This document shows, in pieces, positions 9,796 through 17,674 of a stretch of 64,000 nt of DNA (position 1 is its first letter; each line of letters begins with the position of its first letter). A program made the translations under genes and the position numbers. The stretch covers positions 384,001 through 448,000 of the forward strand of contig CM000431.1 of NCBI GenBank assembly GCA_000165345.1. The letters run 5' to 3'. Under the pieces are notes generated by a model. It saw only the letters and a program-made list of their open reading frames with translations. It was not told the origin of the DNA and did not search any database.

Positions 9796-10083
9796 TATTG
9801 TAATTAACATTTAGTTTTTGGCATATCCACATTTATGATATGTGTAATTTATTAAGTTATTTTTTTCTAAAATATTTGCATCTTTCAAACCTTTATTATT
9901 CCCGCCAGATCTAAATTAGTATTACTTAGGGTAACTAGGCAAAATAATAGAAATTCAAAGTTAAAAAAAATAATAACAAATTATATTAATAAATCAGAAT
10001 TATTAATATATAGCATATGCCTTATAAAAGGTTTTTGTTAATTAAAGCTAGCTGTAATATTAATATAATTGTTTATACTGATC

Positions 10084-10227
10084 ATGGTAGATAATACTCG
10101 AGGAGAAAAAGATCTAACAAGCCTAAATACAAATAATAATGAAGGCTTGGATGGGAGTTCCAACTTCAATTTTGACATTCAGTCATCTCTTTTGGCAACA
10201 AAGAAGGCACTAGATGAGGATATGAAG
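10084..10227 (+). CDS. HYPK-like (Huntingtin-interacting protein K) small protein, exon 1 of 2.
   Basis: ATG at 10084 (the track ORF begins at TTG 10069). The reading frame runs straight into a consensus donor, AAG|GTAAGT, at 10228. NFDIQSSLLATKKAL resembles HYPK EEKEIQSSNLETAMS. Confidence 0.5.
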
Positions 10228-10329
10228 GTAAGTTTGCTAAATAATATTTTTGAAGAGTTTTAGTGATAGCATTGCTGATGCTCTTTAATAATTTAGTTCC
10301 TAGTAATTATCAACTATATGTAAATTTAG

Positions 10330-10512
10330 AATCTAAGCATTGTTAATGTTGACGCGGGAAACATTCAAAAACTTTCACAGTTATTTGATTTATCACTTAC
10401 ACAAGCCGAAAACATACTTAAAGCCAACAACAACAGTGTTGAAAAGTCTATTGACGATTTGTTGTTAAACTTCTCAGATTTCCAAAATTCCAGACTTGAT
10501 TATCAATTTTAG
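10330..10512 (+). CDS. HYPK-like small protein, exon 2 of 2 (NAC-alpha/HYPK-type UBA-like domain).
   Basis: Acceptor AAATTTAG|AAT at 10328-10329 keeps phase 0. The exon is a stop-free 60-codon frame ending at TAG 10510-10512. IQKLSQLFDLSLTQAENILKANNNSVEKSIDDLL matches the HYPK/NAC-alpha C-terminal UBA-like motif (LELIMTEMEISRAAAERSLREHMGNVVEALIAL). Intron length is 102 nt. Confidence 0.5.
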   Translation, partial: NLSIVNVDAGNIQKLSQLFDLSLTQAENILKANNNSVEKSIDDLLLNFSDFQNSRLDYQF

Positions 10513-10516
10513 AATG

Positions 10517-10560
10517 GTGGCGCCAAAGTCATGTATTTTGGTTAGTGTTTGGCGCCAATC
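10517..10560. promoter_or_regulatory. Pair of E2F-like boxes (GGTGGCGCCAAAG ... TTTGGCGCCAATC) upstream of the COG2-like gene.
   Basis: Two GGCGCCAA cores 30 nt apart, 270-310 nt upstream of ATG 10828. Confidence 0.55.
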
Positions 10561-10827
10561 TACAATAAATAATTAAGGGGTACCTATTATTTAAGGAGAA
10601 AAGAATGCAAAAAGGTTTGTAGAAAAATTGTTCAAGTCTAAGGGAGAATTTCTTAAGAAATATATAGTTTTGTAGAGTGAAGGCTGAAATATAAAATTTT
10701 TGTTTGAAGGTTCAAAGGTATTTTGGTAGTGGATCATGATCTTTTGATTGTGTGGGAATAAGTTAATAATATTAGAGTACACACTGAAGCTATTGAGTTA
10801 ATTAGTTGGAGGAGATTGTACAAGAAA

Positions 10828-13236
10828 ATGGAGAATTCTGCGATAAATCATCCTTTTAAGAAGAAACTGAATAGAGTACTAGAGCTAAAGCTAGGAGAGA
10901 ATGAGGAATTAATTAATGGGCTTATCAGCTTAGACACAGTAGATGATATATCTGAGGGGATCCCAAAGCACTTAGTTACTGAATTACTGAATACTAAAGG
11001 TCAAAACAAGTGTAGATCCATGCAGCTTTTAATATATAAGTACCATCTAATGGTTGCAGAGAGTTGTTTGGACTCTTTAAAACCTTTTATTGATGATTTG
11101 AGAGCAATGAATAATGAAATCAGATCATTTGAAAAGGAGTTTAATGAGAATGTTACAACTCAGCTAACAAACTGGAATAAATTTACTTTTCCCCTTTTGG
11201 AGGAGTTTAGCATGATACAAGATCAAATACAATTAGTAGAGAATAAGAAAAATATGTGTAATACAATGTTATCACACTTAAGTACCAATTTTGTGGGCGA
11301 TATTAAGAACTTAAAATCTTCCATGGATGAATCCAAGGGGAATCTCTTGTTATCTTTAGTTGCAATTTACAACAAATGTATGGCCAGCGAAATCAATTCC
11401 AAGAAACTGATTGAAATCCTTTCTGGTGATTCACTAGATTCACAAAATACTTCGGAATCTGTCCTCTCTAAGCTTAAGAGTGACCGTGAATACTCTAGTA
11501 TGATACCACAAATTCTGATTAATCTGAAAGCATTAATATTAGATTTGGAACTTAAAAGAAATCAGCTGGCGACTGAAATCACAAGCTTCTTGGTTGATCT
11601 AGTGATCTCTAAGTCACCTGATGAATTTAATGATCAATTTGAACAGTCACAGAATGATGAAGATGAGACAGAAGGAATAGAAAAAGGAACTGAAGAGAAA
11701 GTATGTATTTTTGGAAGTCAAAGCTTTCAGGAGTCTGTCGAAATACTCGAGCTTCATCATAAAGAACAGTGCCATTCTTTACTTACCTGCGTTGTTGAAA
11801 CCAGATCAAAGTACTTGGAATATAGATTTAACCATATTATTGGTCATGGAATTTCTATTGGAGACAACAACTATTCCTCTAATCTACTGGACTACCTGGA
11901 GTCTATTTTCGAATGGATTCGCGTTTGTGGAGTTTCCATTGAGTCTGAATTTCTTATTAAAGCCTTTGGCTATCAGATGTGTGAAGATTGTGAGTTTGAA
12001 GAAAAGCATCTGGACTTTAACCAAAGCGATACTTCTGAGCCAGAATCACTTGATAACATGGCCAAGAATATTTTAAATAGCATTACTCATACACTTTGTA
12101 TCCCCTTTTCTGGAGCAATCAGAGATATTCTTCGTCAGTTTCATCCTCCACAGACATCCAGGCCGGATTCCACTCATCATTTTGGTAACCTAACTTCTCT
12201 TAAGATAGGAATTACTATTGGAATTAAAATTGCACATTTAATCAATAATTATGTTGAGACATTAATTCCAATGTTTAAGATCCTACCTAAGAGATTTAGC
12301 TCAAAACCAAAACAAGCCCGTCTTGCATTTCCTTTACTTATTCAGCGTTTTAAAGATTTAAGAGAAGAAGCAATTGCTCAATATTATGTGTATGCGGGAA
12401 TTGTCAAAGAAAACATATCCTCTCGCATTTCTGAAATCATAACTACAGACTTTTCCATATCCATTTTGGTCATGGAATGGTCTTCCCTCTTAAAAGACAT
12501 CCTCTCTACAATACAAAATGGAGTTCTTGCGATTTCAAATGACAACATTCCAAAAATTGAGGACATTAACTCTACCCTAACATCTATGCTTGACACCTTT
12601 ATTAACCCTATGTTTAATGCTATCTGTTCAGTTGCTACTTCAGACAAAACTCCTCTTGCATCAATCATTCGGATCAATAACGTAAACTACTGCCTCTCAG
12701 TACTAACAACTTTTCAAAAAATGAAAGTCCTATTAGAGAAACAGATTGAAATTGCAAATCAAATTATCAATGATGAAGTTTCCAAACTAACTGATTTTTT
12801 AAAAGAAGAATTTTGTGATAAATATAGATTTGGGGAACTGCTTAAAGAGCTTGAAGCCAAAAAAGAAGGTTTAACAACCCCCCAAGTATTTGAGGGATCT
12901 GCTAATAGTAATACTGACCCCAAACTTGAACCTAATTCTAACTACAATAGTAGTGAAAGCGATCCAGGCCAGGACCCACTTTTAATACTATCACAGGTTA
13001 TCATTGATCAGTTCTTTGAAAGTATCTTACGATTTGGAGCCATCCCTTTTGCCAACGCTGATCGAATTCAAGATAAACAAATTAGAAATAATATTTTAAA
13101 AAACCTTTTCGCACACATTTCCCGCCAATACGAGTTAATATTTGACCAAATTACCCTAATTTGGCCTCAAAAAAGTTCTTTTCTCAGGCACGACCCTCAG
13201 CAAATTAAGCTTATTTTTTCTAGTTTGACCGTTTAG
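10828..13236 (+). CDS. Probable COG2/Vps51-family vesicle-tethering complex subunit (likely COG2).
   Basis: The N-terminal region MLSHLSTNFVGDIKNLKSSMDE matches the COG2/Vps51-domain signature (FVNLSTNLVGMDKAL). The protein is long and helical, consistent with the CATCHR tethering family. The track ORF starts at TTG 10816; the first ATG is at 10828. Confidence 0.45.
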   Translation: MENSAINHPFKKKLNRVLELKLGENEELINGLISLDTVDDISEGIPKHLVTELLNTKGQNKCRSMQLLIYKYHLMVAESCLDSLKPFIDDLRAMNNEIRSFEKEFNENVTTQLTNWNKFTFPLLEEFSMIQDQIQLVENKKNMCNTMLSHLSTNFVGDIKNLKSSMDESKGNLLLSLVAIYNKCMASEINSKKLIEILSGDSLDSQNTSESVLSKLKSDREYSSMIPQILINLKALILDLELKRNQLATEITSFLVDLVISKSPDEFNDQFEQSQNDEDETEGIEKGTEEKVCIFGSQSFQESVEILELHHKEQCHSLLTCVVETRSKYLEYRFNHIIGHGISIGDNNYSSNLLDYLESIFEWIRVCGVSIESEFLIKAFGYQMCEDCEFEEKHLDFNQSDTSEPESLDNMAKNILNSITHTLCIPFSGAIRDILRQFHPPQTSRPDSTHHFGNLTSLKIGITIGIKIAHLINNYVETLIPMFKILPKRFSSKPKQARLAFPLLIQRFKDLREEAIAQYYVYAGIVKENISSRISEIITTDFSISILVMEWSSLLKDILSTIQNGVLAISNDNIPKIEDINSTLTSMLDTFINPMFNAICSVATSDKTPLASIIRINNVNYCLSVLTTFQKMKVLLEKQIEIANQIINDEVSKLTDFLKEEFCDKYRFGELLKELEAKKEGLTTPQVFEGSANSNTDPKLEPNSNYNSSESDPGQDPLLILSQVIIDQFFESILRFGAIPFANADRIQDKQIRNNILKNLFAHISRQYELIFDQITLIWPQKSSFLRHDPQQIKLIFSSLTV

Positions 13237-13690: not shown

Positions 13691-16600
13691 ATGAGTAACT
13701 ATAAACAAACTGAACTAAAAAGAAACAAGGGCGATTCAAGAGATGTTTCACTACTTTCTGCTTCAAGCTTGCATGAAGGCCAATCAAACATGCAAATGTG
13801 GAGGAGAAGGTGGGAGCCATGCCTACCACACATACTAAGATCCCCGTTATCTATTAAGGAAGTTTCAGCTTTTGAAGGAATGGGGAAAATGGAAAGATCT
13901 GACGTTTCTGCCTATTTTCCTTTAACATCTGGAAACAGTTTGGTGAAGTTTGAGGCCATTTCAGATGGAAGTAGCTCATGGAAGAAGTTTCCCGCCAGAA
14001 GAATCGGAGTAGTATTATCGGGAGGTCAGGCCTCAGGAGGTCATAATGTGATTGCTGGATTAATGTCTTATATTAAACTTTGTAACCAAAGTAGTCAGCT
14101 TTTTGGATTTTTAGGAGGCCCAGAAGGAGTATATAGTGGGAGATACAGAGAGTTAACTGAAGATGATATTAACGGTATACTTAACCAGGGAGGGTTTAAT
14201 ATTATTTGTTCAGGCCGTCACAAAATTGAAACAGAAGAACAAATGAGAGCTTCCTTGGAGATTTGTGAAAAACTCAAATTACATGGCCTAGTAGTAATAG
14301 GAGGAGATGATTCTAATACAAATGCAGCAGTTCTAGCAGAATACTTCAAACGTAACTCGTCTAGTACAGTAGTTGTAGGATGTCCCAAGACCATAGATGG
14401 AGATTTGAAAAACGAGGTAATTGAGACATCTTTTGGTTATGATACAGCAGTGAAAACTTATAGTGAACAGATTGGAAGTATTATGGATGCAATTAAAACT
14501 GAGGGATACGGATACTATTTTGTAAGGTTGATGGGAAGATCTGCATCTCACATTACTTTAGAATGCGGTCTTCAGACTAGAGCGAATATGATCTTGATTG
14601 GAGAAGAAATTAAGGAAGAGAACAGATCTTTGATGTCGATAGTAGACGAAATTGTAGAAATGATTCTAAAAAGAGATTCACTGGGAAAGAAACATGGAAT
14701 TGTATTATTACCCGAAGGGTTAATAGAGTTTATTCCAGAATTTGAGACTTTAATCAAAGAATTAAATCTTATTTTGCTTAAAACTAACGATAGAAAACAG
14801 ATTATAGATAGCTTAAGTCAAGAAATGAAGACTCTTTTCTTGGAGCTTCCTTCAGATGTACAAAATCAGCTCCTTTTAGAAAGGGATCCACATGGTAACG
14901 TTCAAGTAGCAAAGATAGCAACAGAAGAGTTGTTAGTACACATGGCAAAAGAAAAACTTGAGAGGGTAAAGAAGGATTATATTTTAGACAATGTTAAGAC
15001 TCACTACTTTGGATATGAAGGAAGATGCGCTTTACCTTCAAATTTTGATGCAAGTTATTGCTTTGCTCTTGGACATACTGCAGCAGCTCTTATAGACAAT
15101 CAGCGTTCAGGATATATGGCAGTAGTCAGGAAGCTAAGCTTAACTCCTGAACAATGGGAACCAGCAGGATGTCCTCTTACATATATGATGAATATTGAGC
15201 TTAGAAAAGGGAAGTCTGTTCCCGTTATTAAGAAGTACTTAGTAGATCTTAAAGGACAATCTTACTTAGCTTATTGTCAAGTTAGATCTGAGTGGAAGTT
15301 GAATGATTATTACAGAAATCCAGGACCAATACAATTTGATGGTCCTAATTCCGGAGTAACTAATTATATGATTTCTCCTCCAAGAGTGGAGGATTTACTT
15401 AGAATGGAGGATAGATGCGAGAATAAAATGAGTCATAAATTATCAGGGTCAGAAAGCTCTCAAAATAGATCAAAGGACGACATGAAGATACAGAAGATCC
15501 TTCTTTCAACAGCTTCCAAGTTTAACGATGATCTAATCATTTCCTCCTCATGCAGAGATTTAGATGCTTACATTATTACTAAATGTTTACCTCATCAGAC
15601 TGGGAGACACAACAGCAAAATACTACAATTAAAAGAGGAGGAATACTCATCAGGATTCACAGAGATAAGAGAGAACAGCCAGTCAAAATCTTCCATGGGT
15701 AATTCACTAGCTTGTGAGTCACTTGGATTAATTCTATCATGCCTTTCAACTCCTGGTACTCAGAATGTAATTTGTGGACTAGTCAATGGACTACCATCGC
15801 TTAAACAGCTTATAGTTTTTAAGTCTCTCTCAGACTTTTCAGAAGGAAAAGCTCTAAAAGTCGATCTTACTTCCGAAGGATCATTGGCTTTCTTTGAGAA
15901 TTCTCTCAATTCTGGAGGCTGTATATTCCCAAATGGAGTAGAAATAAAAATGAATGTCTCAGAAAAAAAGAGCTCAAATACAACTTTAAAAGCTAATGAT
16001 AACCAAGAATTCACAAACAGCTCTTGCGTTCTTTCATGCAAAGGGCTAGTTAGTAATGACTTCCTCTCTCAACTCTTGTCATTTTTTAATATGCGTGCAA
16101 TTGCAATTGTGGGGAACAGTGAGGCGGCAACGTTTGGCGCCTCTATATCGGAGCAATTAATTTGCATGTCGTTAAATGGCATGAAGAGTGAGATCCCAGT
16201 AGTGTTTGTTCCAGTTTGCTTGGAAAACAGTATTTCTCATCAAATGATTGAGACATGTATTGGATTTGACTCTGTAACTAAGAGTATTTCAACTTTGGTT
16301 GGAAATCTGTTAACAGATTCAGCTTCAGCAACAAAGTATTGGTATTTCATGAAGATGATAGGCGATAAGACTTCAAATGTTGCTTTAGAGGTTGGAATAC
16401 AAACTCATCCAAATTTGGTTGTAATTCCAGAAAGATATGCAGATGGAAAACTTTCAGTTTATGGTTCAGAAATGGCTGGGGTCACTTTAGATGATATTAT
16501 TACTGAAATTTGTGATATAATTTGTTTGAGATCTAATCAGGGAAATAATTTTGGCGGGCTCCTGGTATCAGAAGGTCTTTTTGACCAGGTATACCCAACA

Positions 16601-17674
16601 AGAGAGTATAGGAAGATATTTTCAAGGTTTAGCACTCAGAATTTATGTAATGCTTCAAATTCAGGATGCGAGATTCTGGGTTCTGAAAGTTTAAGTAGAT
16701 ATGAGAAAAAAGTTGTTGAGGATTTCAAACTTATATTTAGTGATATAGATACGAGACTTATTGAGAATTTGATTAATTCAAGAAAGATATGTGATGTTAG
16801 GACTGAGATTATACTCTCAGCTCTGGTTCAAAAGGAACTCAAATTTAGAAGGTCTAAGAATAAAATTAAGAATGGGATGAACCCAGTGTGCTTTAGTTTT
16901 ACAGATCAAGTCAGAGCTTGTATCCCTTCTGATTTTGACTCTACACTTGGATTAATGTACGGAATGCTTGCATCAAAAATAATTAATAGTAACTTGGTTG
17001 GGGGATATGTTACGGGGATTAAGGGGGTATTGAGCCAGACAGATAGTTGGAATATGTATGCTATTCCTATTTCCTCTTTAATGACTTTAAATATTGAAGG
17101 AGATAAAATACAGGATTCAAGAAACAACTCAAATCTTTCATTTGAATCAAAGAAACTTCTAACCGAATCTACACTAGGAAATGCTGGCCATCAACTTGAA
17201 TTCATATGCAAACTGAATTCCGTTAATTTGCGCAATAACCCTTCATTTAAACTTTTAATGAACCACATTGAAAAATGGGAAGTCGATAATACTTATGCTA
17301 ATCCAGGCCCTATTCAATACTTTAATCTATTCAAAAATTTATTCAACAGAACACTATTTGAAAGTGAATACGTTTATACGCGAAACCTAAAAGAAATGGA
17401 TCAAATATTACTTGAAATTAAGACATTATGCCAATTAGGTGTTGAAAAGGATATTTTAAACTCTACTATACAACACTTAAAGGCAATTCAAAATTCTATT
17501 TCAATAATGAGCAGCTGTAACCACAGAAAATCTAAACCAGAACAAATAGAATGCATACAGAAAACAAACTCAATAGCAAACTACACATCAAACTTAAAAT
17601 GCAAAAGCAATAATAATGAAACCAATCTGGAAATGATTGTTAACAATATTATTAATCAGGAAACTTGCAATTAA
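13691..17674 (+). CDS. Pyrophosphate-dependent phosphofructokinase (PPi-PFK), a fused two-domain long form.
   Basis: The N-terminal catalytic half carries GGDDSNTNA, TIDGD and MGRSASHITLECGL. The C-terminal half is a divergent second PFK-like domain. The 1327-aa double-domain form is typical of apicomplexan PPi-PFKs. Confidence 0.9.
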   Translation: MSNYKQTELKRNKGDSRDVSLLSASSLHEGQSNMQMWRRRWEPCLPHILRSPLSIKEVSAFEGMGKMERSDVSAYFPLTSGNSLVKFEAISDGSSSWKKFPARRIGVVLSGGQASGGHNVIAGLMSYIKLCNQSSQLFGFLGGPEGVYSGRYRELTEDDINGILNQGGFNIICSGRHKIETEEQMRASLEICEKLKLHGLVVIGGDDSNTNAAVLAEYFKRNSSSTVVVGCPKTIDGDLKNEVIETSFGYDTAVKTYSEQIGSIMDAIKTEGYGYYFVRLMGRSASHITLECGLQTRANMILIGEEIKEENRSLMSIVDEIVEMILKRDSLGKKHGIVLLPEGLIEFIPEFETLIKELNLILLKTNDRKQIIDSLSQEMKTLFLELPSDVQNQLLLERDPHGNVQVAKIATEELLVHMAKEKLERVKKDYILDNVKTHYFGYEGRCALPSNFDASYCFALGHTAAALIDNQRSGYMAVVRKLSLTPEQWEPAGCPLTYMMNIELRKGKSVPVIKKYLVDLKGQSYLAYCQVRSEWKLNDYYRNPGPIQFDGPNSGVTNYMISPPRVEDLLRMEDRCENKMSHKLSGSESSQNRSKDDMKIQKILLSTASKFNDDLIISSSCRDLDAYIITKCLPHQTGRHNSKILQLKEEEYSSGFTEIRENSQSKSSMGNSLACESLGLILSCLSTPGTQNVICGLVNGLPSLKQLIVFKSLSDFSEGKALKVDLTSEGSLAFFENSLNSGGCIFPNGVEIKMNVSEKKSSNTTLKANDNQEFTNSSCVLSCKGLVSNDFLSQLLSFFNMRAIAIVGNSEAATFGASISEQLICMSLNGMKSEIPVVFVPVCLENSISHQMIETCIGFDSVTKSISTLVGNLLTDSASATKYWYFMKMIGDKTSNVALEVGIQTHPNLVVIPERYADGKLSVYGSEMAGVTLDDIITEICDIICLRSNQGNNFGGLLVSEGLFDQVYPTREYRKIFSRFSTQNLCNASNSGCEILGSESLSRYEKKVVEDFKLIFSDIDTRLIENLINSRKICDVRTEIILSALVQKELKFRRSKNKIKNGMNPVCFSFTDQVRACIPSDFDSTLGLMYGMLASKIINSNLVGGYVTGIKGVLSQTDSWNMYAIPISSLMTLNIEGDKIQDSRNNSNLSFESKKLLTESTLGNAGHQLEFICKLNSVNLRNNPSFKLLMNHIEKWEVDNTYANPGPIQYFNLFKNLFNRTLFESEYVYTRNLKEMDQILLEIKTLCQLGVEKDILNSTIQHLKAIQNSISIMSSCNHRKSKPEQIECIQKTNSIANYTSNLKCKSNNNETNLEMIVNNIINQETCN

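Follow-up and report, generated by a model that had tools for sequence, protein, structure and literature searches.

NatA is generally near-universal in eukaryotes, and structures of its regulator HYPK (huntingtin-interacting protein K) have been solved for Chaetomium thermophilum (5NNP and 5NNR) and for human (6C95 and 6PW9).

In the fungal complex, residues A87, V89, L91, L92, A114, I115, M118 and I122 of the HypK bundle make the contact with helices alpha36 and alpha38 of Naa15, and the first 50 residues of HypK inhibit Naa10 (PMC5467210). In human HYPK, a salt bridge joins E103 to K685 of Naa15, and N129 at the C-terminus is a further point of contact with Naa15 (PMC7010799). In the solved complexes, moreover, the N-terminal segment of HYPK contacts the active-site entrance of Naa10 (PMC5467210, PMC7010799).

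In this work, we followed up a small locus of Cryptosporidium parvum chromosome 3, located within a stretch of 64,000 nucleotides (hereafter the window, to which all coordinates refer unless another record is named), where a sequence-only reading had proposed a two-exon gene for an HYPK-like protein. With the integration of gene structure, interspecies comparison, profile searches and a predicted protein structure, our results are consistent with a conserved spliced gene encoding a UBA protein of the HYPK type that would act as a regulator of NatA, a reading to which we assign a probability of about 0.6.

Gene structure and conservation across Cryptosporidium

The coding sequence begins at the ATG at position 10084 of the + strand, and its two exons are joined in phase 0, giving a product of 108 amino acids:

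10084-10227, + strand: exon 1, 48 codons from the start codon onward (MVDNTRGEKDLTSLNT...ALDEDMK), ending AAG/GTAAGT, from the translation
10228-10329, + strand: intron of 102 nt in phase 0, GTAAGT...TTTAG/AAT, 24.5% GC, with several in-frame stops
10330-10512, + strand: exon 2, 60 codons followed by TAG, from the translation

All coordinates of the two-exon model proposed earlier, including the 10227/10330 join and the 108-residue product, were correct to the base, and the deposited protein is identical. The same 108 residues are found in GenBank for C. parvum chromosome 3 as CPHLJ_3g1385, and the product maps to ~395.5 kb of a 1.1-Mb chromosome record (GCA_048859185.1, CM109963.1). The deposited C. 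parvum entries are named "hypothetical protein" or, in one GenBank record, "CUE", and the UniRef name of the C. ubiquitum and C. xiaoi orthologues is 'NAC-alpha-like UBA domain-containing protein'. Public records already include the gene model as well as an automatic name at the level of the domain, and the HYPK reading is absent from the literature searched: we found no paper linking HYPK, Naa15 or NatA with Cryptosporidium and none on cgd3_1385, a search combining HYPK with Plasmodium returned nothing relevant, judging by titles, and no link between HYPK and apicomplexans, and apicomplexans go unmentioned in a survey on how NATs evolved.

The length of the two reading frames and the presence of a GT..AG pair do not go beyond chance in a genome of 30% GC (the window contains many short ORFs, and those of 50-60 codons are common), and therefore we gave weight to the comparison between species. 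Orthologues were identified in at least eleven Cryptosporidium species: proteins of 108-118 amino acids occur in C. hominis, C. tyzzeri, C. meleagridis, C. ubiquitum, the chipmunk genotype I, C. canis, C. felis, C. bovis, C. xiaoi and C. serpentis, and another is encoded on a Logan contig (SRR18693150, 3.8 kb), where the orthologue at positions 1253-1689 is 87% identical to that of C. parvum and has an intron of 110 nt. When a profile was run exhaustively against 1.84 billion representatives, all relatives at E<=0.001 belonged to Cryptosporidium, and whatever else was returned consisted of low-complexity matches in giant proteins.

In all six species whose DNA was compared, the junction ATGAAG/GTAAGT ... 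AG/AA falls at one and the same codon, and the length and end of exon 1 are identical in five of them. The introns measure 102, 111, 103, 99, 75 and 110 nt, and are thus not all multiples of three. Mean pairwise identity among the six is 0.75 and 0.73 for the exons versus 0.54 for the intron, which also carries indels. Differences at codon positions 1, 2 and 3 number 170, 100 and 426 over both exons, the third position being dominant, and the same pattern is displayed by exon 1 (67/42/169, dN/dS 0.03-0.13) and by exon 2 (103/58/257, dN/dS 0.08-0.16) when each is considered alone.

These data bear on the possibility that the locus is not a spliced gene at all, but two separate or non-coding ORFs for which the public models would be annotation artefacts. 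The 108-residue product was indeed seen on genomic records only: an exact look-up of the spliced product returned just four genome-scale contigs and, in the collections searched, no spliced transcript contig, so that splicing rests on the interspecies comparison and the public gene models. Furthermore, prokaryote-style gene callers break the locus into ORFs of 59 and 62 amino acids on Logan contigs, and the gene call on the SRR18693150 contig likewise consists of ORFs of 63 and 62 amino acids, the second of which starts at an intronic ATG. However, exon 2 of C. parvum lacks an in-frame ATG and therefore needs exon 1; the junction is kept at the same codon in six species with introns of non-triplet length; purifying selection acts on both exons while the intron is free to change; and the hhalign and HMM alignments to HYPK described below start within exon 1 (at residues 46 and 35, respectively) and cross the junction into exon 2. 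We consider the non-gene explanation very improbable, and conclude from the comparison of sequences that a true protein-coding gene with an intron lies here, conserved throughout the genus and strongly constrained by purifying selection.

The sequences flanking the gene contain E2F-like boxes on both sides:

9899-9906, + strand: E2F-like box TTCCCGCC, followed by AGATCT (9899-9912 with AGATCT), 185 nt upstream of the ATG
10519-10527, + strand: box GGCGCCAAA, 7 nt past the stop codon and ~300 nt upstream of the COG6-like gene

The sequence TT(T)CCCGCC is found 127-185 nt upstream of the ATG in five of the six species, with the variant TTTACCGCCAGATCT in the chipmunk genotype, and the box at 9899-9906 may be regarded as a candidate promoter element of the small gene. 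On the downstream side, four of the six species have GGCGCCAAA 6-8 nt past the stop codon, and in C. parvum it is accompanied by a second copy, TTTGGCGCC (10548-10556). The SRR18693150 contig carries GGCGCCAAA 52 nt past the stop and a degenerate GGCGGTAAA at the near position, and C. felis has neither. These downstream boxes probably belong to the promoter of the COG6-like gene (ATG at 10828). The sequence-only reading had named, as a scenario that would speak against its own gene model, an E2F box embedded in exon 2 and used instead as a promoter for the downstream gene. This scenario fails: the 12-mer in question, GACGCGGGAAAC (10351-10362), varies between species at wobble and replacement positions as any other part of the exon does, and we regard it as ordinary coding sequence.

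Other features of the region are as follows. The window is AT-rich (27-43% GC), with long, intron-poor ORFs, and its first 2 kb reach 43% GC, versus 23-36% in the rest. A 941-aa ORF at 1-2827 starts with a ubiquitin-family domain (E=1.6e-14), which is followed by a long region that gave no domain match. Upstream of the small gene, an out-of-frame ATG opens a 25-codon ORF (10017-10094) that extends over the main start codon (10084); should transcripts begin upstream of 10017, this ORF would constitute a uORF. The downstream gene (10816-13236, 802 aa) has no Pfam match at E<=1e-5 in C. parvum; its orthologues have precomputed matches to COG6_N (weak) and COG6_C, and it therefore appears to encode a divergent COG6 subunit of the Golgi. 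Beyond it, a 1327-aa ORF (13691-17674) contains two phosphofructokinase domain stretches, and thus is a fused or duplicated phosphofructokinase, which is ordinary for Cryptosporidium. The neighbourhood as a whole, which includes an IQ-motif protein, the COG6-like protein, the phosphofructokinase and others, gave no hint of function for the small gene.

Protein architecture and family assignment

An AlphaFold2 model was built from six orthologues. It is all-helical, with no strands, and has a mean pLDDT of 73, rising to ~90 in the bundle. The N-terminus is disordered, a long helix extends over residues 25-49 (pLDDT ~77-83), and the bundle is formed by helices at residues 57-67, 71-80 and 85 onward, the last of which runs to residue 106. 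According to this model, the protein is predicted to consist of four parts, namely a disordered N-terminus with the motif EKDLTxL, a long helix, a UBA-type bundle and a genus-specific helical tail, encoded as follows:

10105-10125, + strand (codons 8-14): EKDLTSL motif, near invariant in the intestinal species, a possible counterpart of HYPK helix alpha1
10156-10232, + strand (codons 25-49, with the intron inside): predicted long helix before the UBA bundle, the counterpart of HYPK alpha2
10342-10461, + strand (codons 53-92): UBA-type three-helix bundle of the HYPK/NAC-alpha kind
10462-10509, + strand (codons 93-108): C-terminal extension LLNFSDFQNSRLDYQF, which continues the last helix (helix 85-106 of the model)

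HYPK is built in this same way, and the NAC beta-barrel found in NAC-alpha is absent. In Pfam, a NAC match is absent at E<=10, and the 108 residues constitute a small protein with no other globular domain.

The C-terminal part had been assigned to the HYPK/NAC-alpha type of UBA from the sequence alone, an assignment that both a profile search of the PDB and hhalign now support. Searched against 177,635 PDB sequences, a genus profile from ten species gave Chaetomium HypK (5nnr_C) as its best match (E=0.0044), with a gapless alignment of 87 residues in which positions 4-90 correspond to HypK 33-119. At E<=10, the profile retrieved neither NAC-alpha chains nor CUE chains, and phmmer of the single sequence against the PDB found nothing relevant. 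Comparison by hhalign with a profile of metazoan and fungal HYPK aligned residues 46-92 with human residues 81-127 (P=1.5e-5, probability 79%). The value was P=1.7e-4 for fungal HypK alone, and the signal was weak for metazoan HYPK alone (P=0.002-0.003) and for human HYPK alone (P=0.044). In the reverse direction, an HMM of metazoan and fungal HYPK matched the ten orthologues without exception, with E-values of 7e-5 to 0.05 at the size of one proteome, and a metazoan-only profile yielded just 1-7 bits for the intestinal species.

The structural comparison points to the same family. The first three ranks of a Foldseek search correspond to CtHypK (5nnr_C and 5nnr_F) and human HYPK (6c95_D, with 83 aligned columns), and 39 residues of 5nnp_C can be superposed at 0.6 A; all Foldseek E-values exceed 0.04, as expected because the domain is so small. 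By profile and fold, the bundle is homologous to the three-helix bundle of HypK, and HypK is its closest solved relative.

Among Pfam families, PF19026 (UBA_HYPK) is the one that matches most orthologues, eight of nine. The scores of full-length matches (positions 1-40 or 2-40 of 41) are 15.3 bits for C. parvum, 19.7 for C. canis, 18.5 for C. felis, 13.6 for C. bovis and 24.7 for C. serpentis, the most divergent orthologue (E=1.6e-5); this last is the best value obtained, and no orthologue scanned reached the gathering score of 27 bits. The C. parvum protein also gives 16.4 bits with the UBA of NBR1 and 13.4 bits with CUE (PF02845), a family whose gathering score of 21.1 bits was likewise reached by no orthologue scanned, the best being 20.6 for C. 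felis.

The latter matches underlie the main rival explanation, a small CUE/UBA-type adaptor binding ubiquitin or NEDD8 and unrelated to NatA, in which ubiquitin would be bound by an [LM]-F-D turn and by the L-L-L that ends the last helix, to be compared with the M-F-P and L-L of CUE domains. Consistent with it, one C. parvum GenBank record bears the name 'CUE', the Pfam CUE model matches six of nine orthologues (C. canis scores 19.6 bits, next to C. felis), the distance to the cut-off is similar to that seen for UBA_HYPK, and in the three orthologues matching both models the scores are similar. Nine sequences all share residues F67, D68 and L92-L94, which, judged by eye, resemble the CUE signature. 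Nevertheless, several CUE chains are present in the PDB and the genus profile retrieved none of them at E<=10, placing HypK on top; the orthologues of C. serpentis and C. bovis have no CUE match at E<=1 yet match UBA_HYPK; and the CUE match is partial, whereas that of UBA_HYPK runs from one end of the model to the other and takes in the extended V-x-V-D lead-in. The combination of a long helix with a C-terminal bundle is, in addition, the architecture of HYPK, which together with HypK fills the top Foldseek positions. On this balance, the CUE-type adaptor is an unlikely explanation, albeit one that deserves to be kept in view.

The automatic name 'NAC-alpha-like UBA', carried by PF19026 in UniRef, raises another alternative, namely a truncated relative of NAC-alpha, reduced to a free UBA and a helical arm, that would work at the ribosomal tunnel exit with NAC or nascent-chain factors and not with NatA. 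NAC-alpha chains of ribosome complexes follow HYPK in the Foldseek ranking (ranks 4, 8, 10 and 12), and the bundle is, by eye, about as similar to the UBA of human NAC-alpha as it is to CtHypK. The missing Pfam NAC match and the all-helical model of the 108 residues, however, speak against this explanation, as does a genus profile that reaches HypK and no NAC-alpha chain of the PDB at E<=10, and we give it little credence.

The proposed association with NatA

Returning to the assignment to HYPK, the residues of CtHypK that contact Naa15 were located on the Cryptosporidium alignment. Hydrophobic residues occupy five of the eight hydrophobic contact positions in all ten orthologues (I60, L63, V85, I89 and L93); of the other three, one is variable (G58) and two are charged (K62 and E86). 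D68, which matches human E103, is invariant across the ten.

Regarding the N-terminus, the sequence-only reading had claimed a match to HYPK in both halves of the protein, and the C-terminal half of that claim stands. The N-terminal halves show no significant similarity at profile level (P=0.14-0.33), and the IQSS-LxT segment on which the claim was based falls in a register that differs from the best local one. IQSS, moreover, was discarded as evidence for HYPK, being a vertebrate detail, within a weakly conserved part of the protein, that is replaced by ISSS, ILSS or ISAS in other animals. A different element of this region is conserved in Cryptosporidium: E8, K9, D10, L11, T12 and L14 are invariant in nine sequences, and MAFFT and HMMER place EKDLTxL under metazoan SGAADLE and fungal AAAALSKLD, at the N-terminal-half P-values just given. 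Helix alpha1 of HYPK reads DSGAADLERVTDY in metazoans and RKAAAALSKLD in fungi. The placement is suggestive only, and EKDLTxL may be a counterpart of the HYPK segment that contacts Naa10.

The C-terminal extension is conserved as well. L93, L94, F96, S97 and F99 are invariant in the nine-sequence alignment; when C. bovis and C. serpentis are added, L94, F96 and S97 remain invariant, and L93 and F99 are kept in all but C. serpentis or C. bovis.

From these correspondences, we infer that the protein is probably a NatA-associated regulator of the HYPK kind whose N-terminal part has diverged. The five hydrophobic contact positions that are kept and the invariant D68 speak for this reading. Against it stand the charged K62 and E86, the tail that takes the place of the HYPK C-terminus, the N-terminal region with its non-significant similarity, the Pfam scores below the gathering score, the low bit scores with the metazoan-only profile and the lack of relatives outside the genus at E<=0.001. 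By analogy with the solved complexes (PMC5467210, PMC7010799), the UBA bundle would dock on the TPR helices at the C-terminal end of Naa15 and the long helix would run across the NatA complex; the N-terminal segment might reach the active-site entrance of Naa10, where it would tune co-translational N-terminal acetylation.

The same features may also be read in another manner, as those of a genus-restricted and strongly diverged HYPK derivative that might either link NatA or the ribosome exit-site machinery to ubiquitin or NEDD8, or be independent of NatA. Under such a scenario, the canonical N-terminal inhibitory segment would have been lost, and the CUE-like residues F67-D68 and L92-L94, together with the tail, would have been gained, hence the possible link to ubiquitin or NEDD8. 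We hold this derivative to be rather improbable.

Significance and comparison with known systems

Beyond annotation, the locus carries little weight, given that the gene model is public and two of the orthologues had already been named automatically. What is added here is a reasoned assignment to the HYPK kind for an entry recorded as "hypothetical protein" or "CUE". If the assignment is true, it would extend HYPK to Cryptosporidium and would give access to the control of N-terminal acetylation during translation in a parasite whose proteome is very reduced. The locus also illustrates usefully how a small spliced gene can be broken into two ORFs by prokaryote-style callers.

With respect to known systems, the protein shares with CUE proteins (PF02845; e.g., yeast Cue2 and Tollip) a three-helix bundle of the UBA-like fold. 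It has the same UBA subtype as NAC-alpha (NACA/Egd2), but differs from it by lacking the NAC beta-barrel domain, and therefore no NAC heterodimer could be formed through a beta-barrel; membership of the NAC-alpha family is excluded by the missing NAC domain, and a derivation from NAC-alpha is possible as an evolutionary origin.

The comparison with HYPK itself reveals both differences and common traits. In a three-way alignment, animal HYPK ends at the UBA and fungal HypK has only a few residues beyond the bundle, ending in F, whereas the Cryptosporidium protein has a conserved extension of 16 residues, so that the free C-terminus by which human HYPK contacts Naa15 is replaced by a helical segment. 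From the N-terminal motif to the bundle, the helix of the Cryptosporidium protein is, by eye, ~12 residues shorter than that of human HYPK; the spacing between motif and bundle equals that of fungal HypK because the alignment with the latter is gapless. The size is comparable, with 108 amino acids versus 121-129 in animals and 126 in Chaetomium, and the order of the parts is that of HYPK, with a disordered N-terminus, a long helix and a C-terminal three-helix UBA bundle.
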